Virus genome (UHGV): UHGV-0022456
DNA length: 38,055 nt
Origin: a virus
Reading direction: 5' to 3' (one strand)
Shown here one piece after another: positions 2,468-33,515 of this stretch; within the stretch, counting starts at the first letter, position 1; every line of letters begins with the position of its first letter. The translations under genes and the position numbers were made by a program. The notes under the pieces are model-generated. The model did not search any database and had not been told where the DNA came from. It was given only the letters and a program-made list of their open reading frames with translations.

Positions 2468-2701
2468 ATGAGCAATAGATATATTTACCATTACCATGCA
2501 ATAACAAAAGGCGGATCGGCTTCAATGTCAGGTATTGCTCAGCTTAACTTCAGGATTAAATCACAAGAAGACCTTGATGTGTTGAAGGGGATGATTAATC
2601 GTGATGGATTCATAGCCCATGCAGTTACGTCTCTCTCATGTCTCGGTCGTGAGAATGACGACGAAGAAACAGAAACACTAACTAGCAATTCGAATCACTA
2701 A
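2468..2701 (+). CDS. Hypothetical protein (77 aa)
   Basis: GGAG SD upstream of ATG 2468; acidic C-terminus. Confidence 0.45.
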   Translation: MSNRYIYHYHAITKGGSASMSGIAQLNFRIKSQEDLDVLKGMINRDGFIAHAVTSLSCLGRENDDEETETLTSNSNH

Positions 2702-2714
2702 GCAGAGGTGATAA

Positions 2715-3119
2715 ATGAACAGACAAATAGCACTGCGCGACATCATAAAGGCCATTGTTATTCTTAAGCCAGGGGTGACGATGGCAGTAATTCAGCGGAT
2801 GATATGGACCAAAACACCAAGCGCAACAATTGGGACCGCGCTGCACTGCATTGTTGCGCAGGGACTATTCACGACACGAAGGGTAGGCAACAAAGGTCAA
2901 CCAGGGTTTAAGTGTAATGCCTACTATCCGACGAAGAAGCTACTGGACTCGTTCACGGTTACTAGCGAGATGCGGGAGTATCTTGGGCTGACGGATGTTG
3001 ACCTGAACCCAGGGAAGGCGAAGCGCAAGTGCAACACTGTCTTTGAGTCATGTAAACAAAGCCCGGCAACGAAACGCATCCTTTGGTTTTATGGGCAGGG
3101 TGAGCTGCCAGCTATATGA
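2715..3119 (+). CDS. Hypothetical protein (134 aa)
   Basis: AGAGGTG SD upstream of ATG 2715; followed by terminator hairpin 3124-3148. Confidence 0.5.
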   Translation: MNRQIALRDIIKAIVILKPGVTMAVIQRMIWTKTPSATIGTALHCIVAQGLFTTRRVGNKGQPGFKCNAYYPTKKLLDSFTVTSEMREYLGLTDVDLNPGKAKRKCNTVFESCKQSPATKRILWFYGQGELPAI

Positions 3120-21190: not shown

Positions 21191-22794
21191 CAGTATTTAA
21201 CCCCCGTATCAGTCCCCTTCGTTCTTAAGGCGTTGTCTCTTCGTAGCTCCTGCCGTATAGCCTGCGCGGTTGCCACCGGATTTTCAGCGCCATTGACAAT
21301 AATCTCGCCAACTGTAGTGTTCCCGCTGTTGGTGGTAATAACATTTCCCCGACCAGCATTAGCCTGAGCCATGCCCTGCGCCATTGTCGGAGGGGCGGTT
21401 ACGGTTATGCGTGGAGGAACAAGAACCTGCGGCGCAGTAATGCCATGACCAGGAATTTCAGGTTGCCTGTTTTCACCTTTTACTATTTCTGCGTAACCCG
21501 GGATGCGCTCATGACCTGGAATGTCATGCTGTAGATTACTTTGCGTTTTGGGATTCCTGTTTGGGTTGTACGACCCGCCAGAAGCAAACGTCATAAGTTT
21601 CTGCGCCCATTCAGGCATGGCGTTGTAAATGGCTTTGTCTATCCTTCCCAGTGCATCGATGATGTAATTTACAAGCCCGTCCCATATTCCCCTGATGCTG
21701 GTGTCCATTCCTTTAAAACTTTCAATGATGCGACCTGTAACCGAGTCGCCACCAGTGAAGTAGGTATATACATCCTGAATGGCAAGAATGAGCGCGCCAA
21801 TTGCAAGCCCTACCAGTGCAGGGCCAGCAGCCGCAGCCGCCCACGCCAGCAGAGCGCCAACCCGCATTGTGGCAAACGCTGTTGTTAGCGCATTGGTTAG
21901 CGCGATTAGTTTGGCCCATGACGCTATTGCGGCAGATCCGATCAGGTAAGGCATGGCAATAGCTGCGGCTATGCCCAGGTATTTGATGGAGGCAATGAGT
22001 CCATTAATAGCAGCGGTAAGGCCGTTAACTATCTCATCGCCGTGAAGGTCGAAAAACTCCTTCATCTGGCGAGTTATTCGCGTGAATATCGGCAGCAGGT
22101 TGGAGGCGACGATATTCCACAGGCCTTTAATGCGAGCCTGCAGGGAATCCATCTCGCGGGTATATTCCCGCGCCATGTCGAGATTCTCCTGGCTAATTAC
22201 CAGCCCGGACTCTCTCGCCTGCTTCTGAAGTTCCGCGATTTTTTCGGATGTCTGCGCGAAAAATTCACCGCCAACATCTGCAAGCCCACCGCCGAAAAGG
22301 GCATCAGCAAGGAATTGCCGTTTGCCCTGCTCTTTAACCTCGCTCAGCTTATTCCTGACAAGCCTAAAAAGCCCTTCGATATTGTTTCCGTACTGTTTAA
22401 CCTGGGCCTGCGTGATGCCGATTTCGCCAAACGCATCCGCATTAGCCTTCCCGTCCAGCGCAAACTCGCCAGCCCGCATCGACAACTCTTTCATGCCGTC
22501 TGCAAGCTGGTCTTGTTCAATACCAAATGATTTTGCGGCGAATGCCGTGGCCTGAAACGCCTCAGCATTGACGTTCAGGCGCTTGGTTAGCTGGTCAATC
22601 TCTGTTGCGGTATTGGCGAAGTCGTTAACCATCGCATAAGCCGCACCGGTGACCGCTGTAGCCGCCGATGCTGCAATGGTGATAAGGCCAGCCATGACCT
22701 TAGTAACGTCCTTAACGGACTGCTCAGCTTCGTTAAATGAGGCATCATCAACATCGAGGCCGATGTAACCCAAAAGCTCAGTAACAAATGCCAT
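21190..22794 (-). CDS. Tail tape measure protein
   Basis: 534 aa; helical N-terminal half, central hydrophobic Ala/Gly/Leu-rich segments; directly follows chaperone frameshift. Confidence 0.7.
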   Translation of the reverse strand: MAFVTELLGYIGLDVDDASFNEAEQSVKDVTKVMAGLITIAASAATAVTGAAYAMVNDFANTATEIDQLTKRLNVNAEAFQATAFAAKSFGIEQDQLADGMKELSMRAGEFALDGKANADAFGEIGITQAQVKQYGNNIEGLFRLVRNKLSEVKEQGKRQFLADALFGGGLADVGGEFFAQTSEKIAELQKQARESGLVISQENLDMAREYTREMDSLQARIKGLWNIVASNLLPIFTRITRQMKEFFDLHGDEIVNGLTAAINGLIASIKYLGIAAAIAMPYLIGSAAIASWAKLIALTNALTTAFATMRVGALLAWAAAAAGPALVGLAIGALILAIQDVYTYFTGGDSVTGRIIESFKGMDTSIRGIWDGLVNYIIDALGRIDKAIYNAMPEWAQKLMTFASGGSYNPNRNPKTQSNLQHDIPGHERIPGYAEIVKGENRQPEIPGHGITAPQVLVPPRITVTAPPTMAQGMAQANAGRGNVITTNSGNTTVGEIIVNGAENPVATAQAIRQELRRDNALRTKGTDTGVKY

Positions 22795-23060
22795 TAGTCG
22801 GCCTCATAAAGTGACTCGTTGATTCTGCGGTTAATCTCAGCCTCGACGTGAAGTGATTCACAGCAGTCCAGGAACATATGGTACGACCATTTATTCAGCA
22901 CGTCATCCGGGCTGGAGTAATATGCTTTTGCTACGCGCATCACTGCCGCCATCTCATCAGAGTATGACGGCTGGATGTCACGCGTGTAAATCAGCTTTCC
23001 GCCGACACGGAGTTCTCCGCCATCTTGCGTTGAAACATAGCGGTCGCCTTCCCCAAAAAA
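22794..23060 (-). CDS. -1 frame extension of tail assembly chaperone (G-T type fusion)
   Basis: -1 frame open for 88 codons from slippery heptamer T_TTT_TTG (plus 23054-23060) to TAA overlapping tape measure ATG (TAATG). Confidence 0.55.
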   Translation of the reverse strand, partial: FFGEGDRYVSTQDGGELRVGGKLIYTRDIQPSYSDEMAAVMRVAKAYYSSPDDVLNKWSYHMFLDCCESLHVEAEINRRINESLYEAD

Positions 23061-23335
23061 CTCGGGTACATCTCCTTAACGTAAGCAAAGAAAACGGTAT
23101 CGGCGAGGTCAATCTGGCCTTCGAAGAACTTGTCGAAATCAAGCGGCTGATTATCGACTTCCGCACCGTTCAGCATGGATTTCAGCAGGTCGTATTGCTC
23201 ATCACCTTGCAGCTTGCCCTGATAGGTCAGCGCCGCGATGTTCATGAGCTTGGCCTGGATGCGAAAGCCTTCGCGGGTGGTTGGCATGACTACGCTGAAA
23301 GTGTGTTCGCCTGCTTTGATGTCTTTGAGTTGCAT
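22991..23335 (-). CDS. Tail assembly chaperone (zero-frame product)
   Basis: 114 aa immediately upstream of tape measure; GGAG SD; contains slippery site at codons 92-94. Confidence 0.6.
   Translation of the reverse strand: MQLKDIKAGEHTFSVVMPTTREGFRIQAKLMNIAALTYQGKLQGDEQYDLLKSMLNGAEVDNQPLDFDKFFEGQIDLADTVFFAYVKEMYPSFLGKATAMFQRKMAENSVSAES
23054..23060 (-). other. Programmed -1 ribosomal frameshift slippery heptamer TTTTTTG
   Basis: X_XXY_YYZ = T_TTT_TTG in zero frame (AGT TTT TTG); downstream -1 frame open to tape measure start. Confidence 0.55.
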
Positions 23336-23362: not shown

Positions 23363-23368
23363 ATTATA
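23363..23368 (-). promoter_or_regulatory. Consensus -10 TATAAT (minus strand) upstream of chaperone gene
   Basis: Minus strand GTTATAATTATGTC, then ACGGAGA SD and ATG 23335; -35 weak (TTTTCA) and overlaps terminator T-run. Confidence 0.4.
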
Positions 23369-23387
23369 ACACGGAGGGAGTGGAATG

Positions 23388-23407
23388 AAAAAAGCCCCGT
23401 GAGGGGC
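23388..23407 (-). terminator. Rho-independent terminator closing the moron cassette
   Basis: Minus strand GCCCC-TCAC-GGGGC followed by TTTTTT immediately after DUF551-like stop. Confidence 0.65.
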
Positions 23408-23608
23408 CTATTCTGTTGGTGGTGCTGGCGTATCAAACCACATTGCAACTTCACCTACATACTGATGCTTTGTTTGATGGTAACTAGCCAGTAACCACGA
23501 GCCTTGGTGGTTTAATCTACCAATCCACTGCCTACCATCAGAAAGAAGAACGGGTACGTCTCTGTATTTTTCCGGCAACCGATCACTGCATTTAATCCAT
23601 TCGCTCAT
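23408..23608 (-). CDS. DUF551-like small phage protein
   Basis: Track ORF 23408-23611; MSEWIKCSDRLPE...VPVLL...WIGR N-terminus characteristic of DUF551. Confidence 0.5.
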   Translation of the reverse strand: MSEWIKCSDRLPEKYRDVPVLLSDGRQWIGRLNHQGSWLLASYHQTKHQYVGEVAMWFDTPAPPTE

Positions 23609-23611
23609 CAC

Positions 23612-23740
23612 TCAATCCTCATCTTCATAATCAGAAAAACACTTAGCAGAAAGGTTATCCCCATCGCAAAGCGTTGCTTTTCCGTACATCTCAAATATCC
23701 ATTTTGCAAAATCCAGCGTAACTTTGTCATATGCTGTCAT
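23612..23740 (-). CDS. Small acidic ORF (42 aa), not in ORF track
   Basis: ATG overlaps stop of upstream TM2-like gene (ATGA); MTAYDKVTLDFAKWIFEMYGKATLCDGDNLSAKCFSDYEDED. Confidence 0.3.
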   Translation of the reverse strand: MTAYDKVTLDFAKWIFEMYGKATLCDGDNLSAKCFSDYEDED

Positions 23741-24036
23741 TTCTTCACCCCATATTTCCGGTTGATTTCCTGCTCACTGGTACATAGCAGGATAATGAAC
23801 TCGATAAACGCCACGAAAAAGTTAATACCAGTCCAGCAGAACAGAATGTACATTACGCCTGAAAACGGGCGCCCCAAGTAGAAGCGGTGGATGCCAATGA
23901 ATCCGAAGAAGAAGCACAGCAGCACGGCGGTAACTTTGCTCTTTGTGTAAACCTGTTGCTTAGAGCCACAGTTAGGGCAGCTGGTGGCTGATTCGTGGAT
24001 TTGCGCTCCGCAGGCGCGGCAGTAGATGTTGCTCAT
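23737..24036 (-). CDS. Zinc-ribbon / TM2-domain-like membrane protein
   Basis: Track ORF 23737-24060 trimmed to ATG 24036 with AAGGAGAG SD; CRACG...CPNCG zinc ribbon then two hydrophobic helices with GIHRFYLGRP. Confidence 0.55.
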   Translation of the reverse strand: MSNIYCRACGAQIHESATSCPNCGSKQQVYTKSKVTAVLLCFFFGFIGIHRFYLGRPFSGVMYILFCWTGINFFVAFIEFIILLCTSEQEINRKYGVKK

Positions 24037-24046
24037 TTCTCTCTCC

Positions 24047-24214
24047 TTATCGCGCAGCAATCATTGCTTGCCAGATGAACACGACGGCATCCTGCAATTG
24101 CTCGTCATCTAATCCATCCTCCAATCCCGGAACGTCCTCCAGTAACTGCTTAATGCCAGCTTGAATTTGTTCATCTGTTGGCTGGAGTGCCACTTCAAAT
24201 TTAGGTAATGACAT
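24047..24214 (-). CDS. Small acidic protein (55 aa), not in ORF track
   Basis: ATG at 24214 with GAGAGGAAA SD; MSLPKFEVALQPTDEQIQAGIKQLLEDVPGLEDGLDDEQLQDAVVFIWQAMIAAR. Confidence 0.4.
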   Translation of the reverse strand: MSLPKFEVALQPTDEQIQAGIKQLLEDVPGLEDGLDDEQLQDAVVFIWQAMIAAR

Positions 24215-24407
24215 TTCAATTTCCTCTCTGTGGTGTTATTGGTGGGGTGGCGTGCTTCGTCGGTAGCCTCGGTTCAGTAACCGCACTAGCGTTCTCCGTT
24301 TCCGGTAGTGTGTGCGTTCTGGCCTCACGGTTGGGAATCCTGACACTACGATCAAGCCCCTGCGTTGCTCCTCTCCTGCTGCATCCTGCCGCCTCCCTAT
24401 GTGTTGA

Positions 24408-24435
24408 ACTATACACTCTATTTATATTGTGTCAA
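24408..24435 (-). promoter_or_regulatory. Strong sigma70-like promoter driving the moron cassette
   Basis: Minus strand -35 TTGACA (plus 24430-24435) inside GGTTGACAC, 16-nt spacer, -10 TATAGT (plus 24408-24413); leader of about 186 nt to ATG 24214. Confidence 0.55.
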
Positions 24436-24446
24436 CCATTAGGCGC

Positions 24447-24469
24447 GTAAAAAAGGGGCCGAAGCCCCT
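24447..24469 (-). terminator. Rho-independent terminator after tail tube gene
   Basis: Minus strand AGGGGC-TTCG-GCCCCT followed by TTTTTT. Confidence 0.65.
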
Positions 24470-24474
24470 ATTAA

Positions 24475-24888
24475 TTAATCCAGTGCTTGCCCGGTATGGA
24501 TAATGTAACCCTTAACGAACTTAAATGTGTACTGGACAATGGTCAATTCCTGGGTCTTCACTAGCGCAGGAGGTCGTGCCAGCATGGCCTCTTTCGCACC
24601 AGCAACTTCGCCTGTGCTGTTTCTGTCCAGTAAAAGCAATGGCAGCGGTTTGCCAGCCTCATACAATGCCTGCCATGCGGCTTTTGTTGGGCTTACGTCC
24701 TGCAGAGAAACGACGCACGTCCCAGATTCATCCAGCGAGCGAATGAACGCACCGCCAGACTTAATGGAAGGATAAGTATTCCAGATATCATTGTTAAATG
24801 TGAAATTGAACATTTCACCATTAGCAACTGCGCGAGCTGCAACCCCACCCCAGGAAAGGGTAACTTTATTCGGATCGTAAATTGGCAC
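24475..24888 (-). CDS. Tail tube protein (by position)
   Basis: 137 aa immediately downstream of sheath-sized gene. Confidence 0.5.
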   Translation of the reverse strand: MPIYDPNKVTLSWGGVAARAVANGEMFNFTFNNDIWNTYPSIKSGGAFIRSLDESGTCVVSLQDVSPTKAAWQALYEAGKPLPLLLLDRNSTGEVAGAKEAMLARPPALVKTQELTIVQYTFKFVKGYIIHTGQALD

Positions 24889-33410: not shown

Positions 33411-33431
33411 AAAAAACCCGCCGGAGCGGGT
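33411..33431 (-). terminator. Rho-independent terminator after tRNA-like gene
   Basis: Minus strand ACCCGC-TCCG-GCGGG followed by TTTTTT. Confidence 0.6.
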
Positions 33432-33440
33432 CTTATGATT

Positions 33441-33515
33441 TGGCGGGAAGGCATGGACTCGAACCATGATAAAAGAGTTAACAGCTCTCCGTAATAACCT
33501 TTATACGACCTACCC
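33441..33515 (-). tRNA. tRNA-Asn (anticodon GTT) candidate, phage-encoded
   Basis: Hand-folded cloverleaf: acceptor GGGTAGG/CCTTCCC (one U-U mismatch), D-loop with GG, anticodon stem GAGAG/CTCTT, loop CTGTTAA, T-arm CATGG-TTCGAGT-CCATG, discriminator G, encoded CCA. Confidence 0.55.

Follow-up and report, generated by a model that had tools for sequence, protein, structure and literature searches.

The 38,055-nucleotide (nt) stretch of the virus genome UHGV-0022456 that we analyzed (hereafter, the window) carries a short transcription unit on the minus strand between its tail tube and tail chaperone genes. Between the promoter of this unit and its first open reading frame (ORF) lie ~190 nt without a credible gene. 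We show that this leader (24231..24403, minus strand) is a copy of a widespread, unannotated family of structured RNAs of ~165 nt; its limits are set by a covariance model match, by the boundaries of megablast homology and by covariation. The original prediction placed a leader of ~186 nt at this site and treated it as passive. The leader is indeed present there, but "passive" does not describe a member of a conserved structured RNA family found in many unrelated phages. The leader is the most interesting element of the locus, and the protein cassette behind it is ordinary. The fold is well supported by covariation; judged from its sequences, the family is new and of a known general kind, the cis-regulatory leader. 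Our best overall explanation, held tentatively and with a probability clearly below even, is that promoter and RNA form a portable module that acts in cis, for which we favor the role of a polymerase-modifying leader.

Distribution of the leader RNA

When the locus was used as a megablast query, positions 24416-24231 alone matched ~30 unrelated phages (83-97% identity), and a more sensitive search matched the leader in 172 phage records. The carriers include Dhillonvirus (HK578 and many BASEL phages), Drexlerviridae (Warwickvirus JK16, tunus and swan01), Iiscvirinae/Jilinvirus-type phages (PT1 and HeidiAbel_Bas97, hereafter Bas97) and PHB17; further carriers, listed without taxonomy, are Arya, IME279 and Serratia MQ-4. 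No copy of the leader was found in 5,426 complete Escherichia coli genomes or in PLSDB plasmids. The window holds exactly one copy, which the covariance model matches at 24239-24403 (147 bits, expectation value [E] 8e-42); a conserved C/A-rich tail (CACCAAUAAC) carries the homology past this match to ~24231.

At the gathering threshold, Rfam 15 identified only a transfer RNA (tRNA) elsewhere in the window and gave no match to the leader. A search of positions 24150-24500 with Rfam at E values up to 10 returned only three trivial matches below threshold. In the searchable literature (structured-RNA surveys, put-like elements, CsrA, Drexlerviridae transcriptomes and exact strings), we came across no account of the RNA.

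Our collection of copies, drawn from GenBank, IMG/VR, metagenomes and one metagenome-assembled genome, comprises 38 distinct sequences. Looser pattern scans of viral contigs gave mostly chance matches and only two new variants. One candidate, locus L102, was rejected: it lies in an unrelated contig of high GC content, where the pattern matched by chance. The record of phage P-GXEC-L2P5 (L086; GenBank accession: PQ843332.1) is labeled Dhillonvirus and contains three copies of the RNA; at 88.6 kb it is ~2× the usual genome length, and its gene calls are fragmented. Because this record resembles a concatemer or a mis-assembly, we treated its three copies as uninformative.

Secondary structure and covariation

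The model that we tested has nine helices, grouped into five or more named elements (all coordinates are on the minus strand). The closing helix P1 (24245..24397) pairs GGGAGGCG (24390-24397) with CGCCACCC (24245-24252), and seven of its eight pairs show compensatory changes across clades. Close to the 5' end, the P2 hairpin (24381..24389; GCA-GGA-UGC) presents an A(A)GGA(Y) loop in every variant; in variant L136 the stem is wholly replaced (GCUAUA-AGGA-UAUAGC) and the loop is kept. A long-range helix, Px (24262..24371), pairs GGAGC (24367-24371) with GCU-A-CC (24262-24267) and thereby encloses P4 and the long arm; an A:U pair in this helix is replaced by G:C in 11 of 28 sequences.

The P4 domain (24327..24365) consists of the pairings ACG/CGU, GGG/CCC and CUUGA/UCAGG beneath a conserved 8-nt loop, UCGWAGUG, and its pair swaps include one from C:G to U:A in L136 and, in L063, one from U:A to G:U. 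The long arm P5-P3-P3a (24271..24324) contains a conserved asymmetric internal loop (CA / AACGC) and ends in a GNRA tetraloop; within it, P3 shows up to five distinct pair types per position. In the first alignment, the variants of one helix read CGCAC/GUGCG, CUAUC/GAUAG, CCAGG/CCUGG, CAUUGG/CCAAUG and CAUAAC/GUUAUG, and its terminal hairpin appears as CCG-GAAA-CGG, GCC-GCAA-GGC or CUC-GAAA-GAG. The invariant strands are GGAGA, AACGC, the P4 loop UCGWAGUG, AACCGUGA, the internal loop CA/AACGC and GACGAAG.

We counted pairs in two alignments, both fitted to the structure. In the hand-registered alignment of 22 sequences, 94.8% of cells were paired, versus 25-40% in slid controls, and 22 of 41 pairs showed compensatory changes. 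In the alignment produced with the covariance model (28 distinct sequences from at least nine clades), 95.8% of cells were paired, versus 31-40% in slid controls; 28 of 46 pairs showed compensatory changes, and the covariation score was 0.477, versus 0.02-0.06 in slid controls. Three sequences in this alignment that lay outside the training set scored 130-152 bits. An unsupervised MAFFT alignment analyzed with RNAalifold recovered P2, Px, P4 and P3a and added the ACG/CGU and CU/AG pairs. On the opposite strand, the many G:U pairs would turn into A·C mismatches, which identifies the sense strand as the one co-directional with the downstream genes.

The fitting of both pair-count alignments to the structure, by hand or by model, counts against the fold, and so do two energy calculations: the leader's minimum free energy (MFE) does not fall below that of shuffled sequences (z = 0.08), and the energy of the consensus fold exceeds the MFE by ~10 kcal/mol. 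Thermodynamic stability therefore adds no support.

In most of the matching records nothing is annotated over the RNA, and in the others a short "hypothetical protein" is drawn on either strand. For example, Bas97 has Bas97_0052 (L002, 3062-3181) and PT1 has a coding sequence on the opposite strand (L183, 2990-3196; GenBank protein id: QIG65642); MatMar, WaterSpirit and others likewise carry short hypothetical proteins at this position. These coding sequence calls are probably spurious, and >170 genomes would have either spurious ORFs or nothing in place of an RNA element. If the calls were correct, the leader would be a small protein-coding gene; it could also be passive DNA that recent recombination has kept similar. 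Besides the calls in several GenBank records, ORFs of 39-80 amino acids (aa) overlap the leader on both strands. However, the annotated ORFs disagree in frame and strand between records, 1-nt indels separate the clades and an internal TTG start is missing in the Dhillonviruses. The substitutions are paired and compensatory with no three-base pattern, and recent transfer alone would not yield 28 covarying pairs. We consider an absence of RNA function hardly credible, and the indels, discordant frames and strands and paired substitutions exclude the candidate proteins of 66, 39 and 80 aa.

Genomic setting of the RNA copies

In all nine sequence variants examined, the -10 hexamer of a promoter ends ~7 nt before the conserved start of the RNA (CAYAGGG and variants), so P1 closes the RNA almost at its 5' end. 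The promoters themselves differ by clade, with consensus -35 boxes in some and an extended -10 in others. After P1 comes a C/A-rich, G-poor tail, often with R-CC-A/U and then UWAAC, and a Shine-Dalgarno sequence stands directly next to it. The first start codon is 26-32 nt past P1 in 14 of the 17 variants read by eye. None of the RNA copies examined has its own terminator. In the window, the R-CC-A/U motif and its A/U-rich stretch occupy 24235-24244 (minus strand); there and at the equivalent positions of other copies, they resemble the 3' end of a tRNA followed by an RNase E trailer and are also C-rich and G-poor in the manner of a short rut site.

One interpretation of these features is an autonomous noncoding RNA, cut from the 5' end of the mRNA and stable as a ~170-nt species that acts in trans, e.g., by titrating a host factor or a defense nuclease as a sponge or decoy; the downstream genes would then merely use the same promoter. 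Conservation of 80-97% across unrelated phage families regardless of the neighboring genes is consistent with such an RNA, as are the strong promoters ahead of it and the tRNA-like stretch that follows P1 in most variants. On the other hand, the RNA lacks a terminator of its own in every copy and an ORF is always immediately downstream. At the leader, ARAGORN and Rfam identified no element resembling tRNA or transfer-messenger RNA (tmRNA), the only such element in the window being the tRNA-Asn gene at 33441-33515, and 9-11 unpaired nt separate Px from P1, unlike an acceptor/T-arm stack. We regard an autonomous RNA as quite unlikely. A tRNA- or tmRNA-like leader was rejected on the negative ARAGORN result.

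The 5' hairpin suggests a different host contact, in which an RNA-binding protein of the host would act through the leader on translation or stability. A CsrA dimer, or the ribosome, would attach to the A(A)GGA hairpin together with the single-stranded GGAGA close to it, and this binding would keep RNase E away from the 5' end or adjust initiation at the neighboring start codon; the action of CsrA on the flhDC leader is a precedent. The P2 loop resembles what we take to be the CsrA consensus from systematic evolution of ligands by exponential enrichment (SELEX) and is thus a candidate site, and its A(A)GGA(Y) sequence is present in all variants even though the stem is replaced in L136. For CsrA, the second GGA is expected 10-63 nt from the first. 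The leader has this arrangement, with one GGA in the loop of a short hairpin and a second, in GGAGA, ~12 nt downstream of it, and in this it is like CsrA-bound 5' leaders. P1 places the 5' hairpin beside the ribosome-binding site, the linker to the first start codon is G-poor and of similar length in most variants, and a role in translation or stability suits short and long operons alike. However, a CsrA site needs only ~12 nt, which leaves the invariant junction strands, the P4 loop and the internal loop of a 165-nt fold unexplained. The other apparent GGA, in P4, is structural, as it reads GAA with a compensating change in L136. A CsrB-type sponge is expected to have many repeats, unlike the leader, which offers only one or two candidate GGA sites inside a large conserved fold. 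We consider control through CsrA or the ribosome rather unlikely, yet nearly as probable as the action on RNA polymerase discussed below, given the fixed start codon spacing and the CsrA-type hairpin.

The architecture also resembles that of an aptamer, in that covarying helices surround invariant junction nucleotides and the whole lies in a 5' untranslated region beside a ribosome-binding site. In a riboswitch-like sensor, a small molecule or ion reflecting the state of the host, possibly an immune or stress signal, would be bound at the multi-helix junction, and the ligand would set the expression of early or accessory genes, perhaps through access of Rho or RNase E to the tail past P1, which is C-rich and G-poor in all clades. 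Unlike riboswitches, the RNA lacks an expression platform, a coherent regulon and a match in Rfam: no terminator or anti-terminator lies between the RNA and the first ORF, inspection by eye found no consistent pairing across clades that would sequester the Shine-Dalgarno sequence, the downstream genes have no common functional theme and no Rfam riboswitch model matched at E values up to 10. A ligand-sensing role is decidedly improbable. An attenuator, or sequestration of the Shine-Dalgarno sequence, past P1 was rejected because the inspected sequences showed no consistent pairing.

The first ORF downstream of the RNA is unrelated between clades. Genes of the RNA-led operons include TM2 and DUF551 proteins, a DUF3987 protein, a MazZ-like pyrophosphohydrolase, a VRR-NUC protein, a lipoprotein-like ORF and many unknowns; in HK578, an acidic protein follows the RNA, and recombination and replication genes come next. 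In Enterobacter phage Arya, the RNA-led operon (L016, 9962-10720, plus strand) encodes a dATP/dGTP pyrophosphohydrolase domain (MazZ-like, PF04447), and this gene suggests nucleotide-pool manipulation or base modification in the Arya group. In one Arya-related group (L022, ~2662-2976, plus strand; homologs in L018, L068 and L072), the RNA heads a two-gene unit that encodes a 104-aa protein with a lipoprotein-like signal (LAAVLGC) and then a 54-aa zinc-ribbon ORF. This unit ends at a terminator facing a convergent gene of 1207 aa, the size of a tail fiber gene, and by analogy it looks like an exclusion cassette of the cor/llp type.

In Dhillonvirus and Iiscvirinae, the RNA adjoins primase or helicase-primase genes (e.g., the Bas97 primase gene, L002, 620-2929), and this neighborhood could hint at a link with replication initiation. 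The promoter and its G-rich structured transcript might prime or activate an origin, as ColE1 RNA II and the T4/T7 origins do. However, the copy in the window belongs to the tail module, at a distance of 15 kb from the replication genes, the L022-type phages have the RNA at the head of the lipoprotein cassette beside a tail-fiber-sized gene, and a translated ORF always follows within ~30 nt. We therefore consider a replication element very improbable. In HK578, the RNA also adjoins a 142-aa gene annotated as a transposase (gp45; L004, 2347-2775).

Possible action on RNA polymerase

We return to the reading that we favor, a leader that modifies RNA polymerase. Promoter and RNA would constitute a portable expression module that works in cis on the operon it heads. 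It would travel among phages of the Dhillonvirus, Drexlerviridae, Iiscvirinae and PY100-like groups. No partner protein common to all clades was found in an all-versus-all comparison of neighborhood ORFs, with the whole genome compared for the window only; the neighborhood comparison yielded only spurious ORFs over the RNA and a helicase-primase common to three clades. With no phage protein common to all carriers, the module would use a host factor.

By analogy with the put RNAs of phage HK022, the nascent RNA may modify elongation by E. coli-type RNA polymerase, a putative activity that we consider possible and, on balance, doubtful. The put RNA suppresses termination and pausing by binding RNA polymerase at the zinc-binding domain of its beta' subunit. 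The nascent leader RNA would fold behind E. coli-type RNA polymerase, and the folded RNA would give processive anti-pausing or antitermination in the manner of put, through a larger and unrelated fold. In the window, transcripts from the promoter at 24435..24408 would express the four small ORFs and would partly read through the terminator stem at 23409..23392 into the tail genes. With terminator resistance conferred by the RNA, the tail-assembly genes would receive transcripts from the constitutive-looking cassette promoter as well; without it, they would be served by the downstream TG-TATAAT site.

Like the HK022 elements putL and putR, the leader is a promoter-proximal structured RNA that heads phage operons transcribed by the host RNA polymerase. 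It likewise has no dedicated phage protein, is restricted to enterobacterial phages and, in some carriers such as Dhillonvirus, occurs ahead of operons with internal terminators. The HK022 put RNA is ~70 nt long with two stem-loops, and putL, which works without a phage protein, is located immediately downstream of its promoter (PMC9378689). Unlike put, the leader RNA has ~165 nt, five or more helices and two junctions, and some of its carriers have short operons in which antitermination is not needed.

Antitermination is favored by the position of the RNA in the HK578 operon, by serial terminators in Dhillonvirus and by co-directional genes past the terminators in Bas97, Arya and the window. 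In HK578, the RNA heads a ~12-kb leftward operon with the whole replication module, and the sole cluster of annotated promoters lies beside it. A strong terminator (GGCCCGC..GCGGGCC) is conserved directly behind the first gene in each of the 13 Dhillonvirus loci with enough sequence; a further terminator occurs at ~+3.5 kb in most of them and a third at ~+7.2 kb in some, ahead of downstream replication genes. In Bas97, Arya and the window, a terminator follows the RNA-led genes and co-directional genes lie beyond it, namely, the late activator and lysis genes in Bas97, unidentified ORFs in Arya and tail genes in the window. An early-promoter, terminator-containing operon is thus the setting in Dhillonvirus, Bas97, Arya and the window, whereas the loci L022, L071, L149, L136 and JK16 do not fit this description.

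The individual terminators can be read in HK578 (L181, 23498-35400, minus strand; also L005-L083), where GGCCCGC..GCGGGCC follows gp44. The Dhillonvirus series continues with AGCCCGC..GCGGGCU ~3.5 kb on and GGCGGGC..GCCCGCC ~7 kb on, with conserved stems and variable loops.

Several observations speak against an action on RNA polymerase. In L022, L071, L149 and L136, the RNA-led operon is only 0.6-2.8 kb long and its terminator faces convergent genes, so antitermination would be needless there and possibly harmful. No strong terminator occurs within 3 kb of the RNA in JK16. A search of HK022 positions 24-34 kb with the covariance model, with filters off, gave a best score of 8.9 bits, which is noise; this region is presumed to hold PL, PR and the put sites, which are unannotated in the record. 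Finally, the near-constant spacing of the start codon and the CsrA-type GGA hairpin fit a role in translation or stability as well or better. A leader homologous to HK022 put was rejected on the noise-level score.

To our knowledge, HK022 put is the single family in which RNA alone controls the host RNA polymerase, so an unrelated second controller of this kind would be an important addition. Should the RNA sense a host factor or stabilize early mRNAs instead, it would still explain how these phages launch early transcription with the host polymerase. We give somewhat less than an even chance to a new class of phage riboregulator in the form of a portable promoter-RNA module, either a second RNA-only processive antiterminator, structurally unrelated to put, that reprograms E. 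coli RNA polymerase or a sensor of a host factor or signal for early, exclusion and anti-defense genes. Several coliphage groups that rank among those isolated most often, BASEL members included, have the RNA at the 5' end of early or accessory operons. Because it is short, modular and present in tractable phages of E. coli K-12, its action is directly testable.

The accessory cassette in the window

In this locus, a ~38-kb PY100-like myophage carries an accessory transcription unit, inserted between its tube and tail-chaperone genes. Based on sequence signals, the unit at 24469-23384 is best read as a terminator, a promoter with the conserved leader RNA, four accessory ORFs and a second terminator. 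Upstream, an intrinsic terminator-like hairpin (24447..24469, stem 24454-24469, minus strand; AGGGGCTTCGGCCCCT) with a UUCG loop and a T-run is predicted to end the sheath/tube transcription unit. The sigma-70 promoter TTGACA-16-TATAGT (24435..24408, minus strand) agrees with the consensus at 11 of 12 positions and is the top promoter match within the 19-38 kb half of the window; from its position, we infer a transcription start at ~24400-24403. At the other end, the stem of a second terminator-like hairpin (23384..23409, stem 23392-23409, minus strand; AGGCCCCTCACGGGGCTT followed by TTTT/T-run) begins at the stop codon of the last ORF. A promoter-like site, TTTTCA-17-TATAAT with an upstream TG (23391..23363, minus strand), stands directly before the chaperone gene at 22991-23335. 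Its -35 region overlaps the T-run of the cassette terminator, such that terminator and promoter are fused back to back.

These promoter and terminator calls are putative consensus matches, and the total number of such calls in the region is little above the shuffled expectation. Chance is nevertheless unlikely for these particular sites, given their strength, their exact placement and the fact that they recur in other phages around this RNA.

The four ORFs are all on the minus strand. ORF1 (24047-24214) encodes an acidic 55-aa protein that belongs to phrog_35278 (function unknown). ORF2 (ATG at 24036, extending to 23737) encodes a protein of 99 aa in which a zinc ribbon at the N terminus is combined with a TM2 membrane domain. 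Its match to TM2 (PF05154) has an E value of 5.8e-18 and 65.3 bits, against a gathering cut-off of 27.9, and the zinc ribbon scores at or slightly under the curated Pfam cut-offs. ORF3 (23612-23740), whose start overlaps the ORF2 stop as ATGA, encodes an acidic 42-aa protein that is conserved in BUCT618. A Pfam search matched no family to ORF1 or ORF3. ORF4 (23408-23608) encodes a 66-aa DUF551 protein (PF04448; E value 1.7e-7, 32.4 bits, gathering cut-off 22). DUF551 is a portable phage and prophage domain that is present in Ea22 variant V2 and in YfdS (PMC10834534, PMC4776307). Neither TM2 nor DUF551 has an established molecular function, so membership in these families leaves the cassette unexplained.

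The original prediction thus located the insulated unit correctly, as its terminators, promoter, leader, four coupled ORFs and TATAAT site all lie at the tube/chaperone junction on the minus strand, and both of its family assignments are borne out by scores above the Pfam gathering cut-offs. Comparison with relatives likewise agrees with its proposal of an accessory insertion. Relatives of the tube protein occur only in BUCT618 (90%), in Yersinia PY100-like phages (~46%) and in two Vibrio phages. In Vibrio phage 13VT501A, chaperone-sized genes directly follow the tube gene, and PY100 has a single unrelated extra ORF at this junction. In the close relatives (BUCT618 and the metagenomic contigs L013, L069 and L076), promoter and leader are kept and the gene content varies. 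The BUCT618 cassette starts with two different leading ORFs, followed by the TM2 gene, the 42-aa ORF and a longer DUF551 protein, while the first gene after the leader encodes TM2 in L069 and another DUF551-like protein in L076.

By contrast, the suggestion that the four ORFs form an undescribed system found no support. Each of the four proteins either belongs to a PHROG of unknown function or has no PHROG, and the PADLOC defense models matched none of them at E values up to 0.01. At the DNA level, only BUCT618 matches the coding part, with fragments elsewhere. Each ORF has its own distribution: a homolog of ORF1 is the first early gene in genomes like that of Salmonella phage SE1, fragments of ORF4 match in ep3-like phages, and only TM2 and DUF551 recur together, in the closest relatives alone. 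On this sequence evidence, the cassette appears to be a mosaic accessory unit of ordinary proteins with no demonstrable multi-protein system. That its proteins interact with the host or mediate exclusion at the membrane is a guess.

The label "moron" applied in the original prediction holds in the architectural sense, as the cassette has its own promoter and terminator signals and is inserted between genes that are adjacent in 13VT501A. It is like the morons of the lambda bor/lom, T1 cor and T5 llp type in forming an insulated promoter-genes-terminator unit between structural genes, in varying among relatives and in encoding small membrane proteins. In the sense of lysogenic conversion, the label is doubtful, given that the leader is absent from E. 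coli genomes and that we found no integrase among the ten larger window ORFs scanned (including terminase, helicase-primase, helicase, RecT, methyltransferases and endolysin). In contrast to such morons, the phage that carries the cassette shows no lysogeny module among these ORFs, and the promoter-leader module of the cassette is shared with the early operons of lytic phages, including siphophages.

Flanking genes and other features

Upstream of the cassette, a 137-aa gene matches a virion structural PHROG and adjoins a DUF3383 sheath-like gene, and we take it to be the tail tube gene from its position. Downstream, the 114-aa gene (22991-23335) has a weak match to tail assembly chaperone models, and this chaperone-type gene is followed by a 534-aa ORF in the position of the tape measure gene. 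Between these two lies a 52-aa ORF (22794-22952, minus strand) that abuts the start of the 534-aa gene. It may encode a second chaperone product or a frameshift partner; its counterpart in BUCT618 is annotated as X1_78.

Elsewhere in the window, the tRNA-Asn (GTT) gene (minus strand) lies just upstream of the portal/head module and is followed by a bidirectional terminator-like hairpin at 33413-33434.

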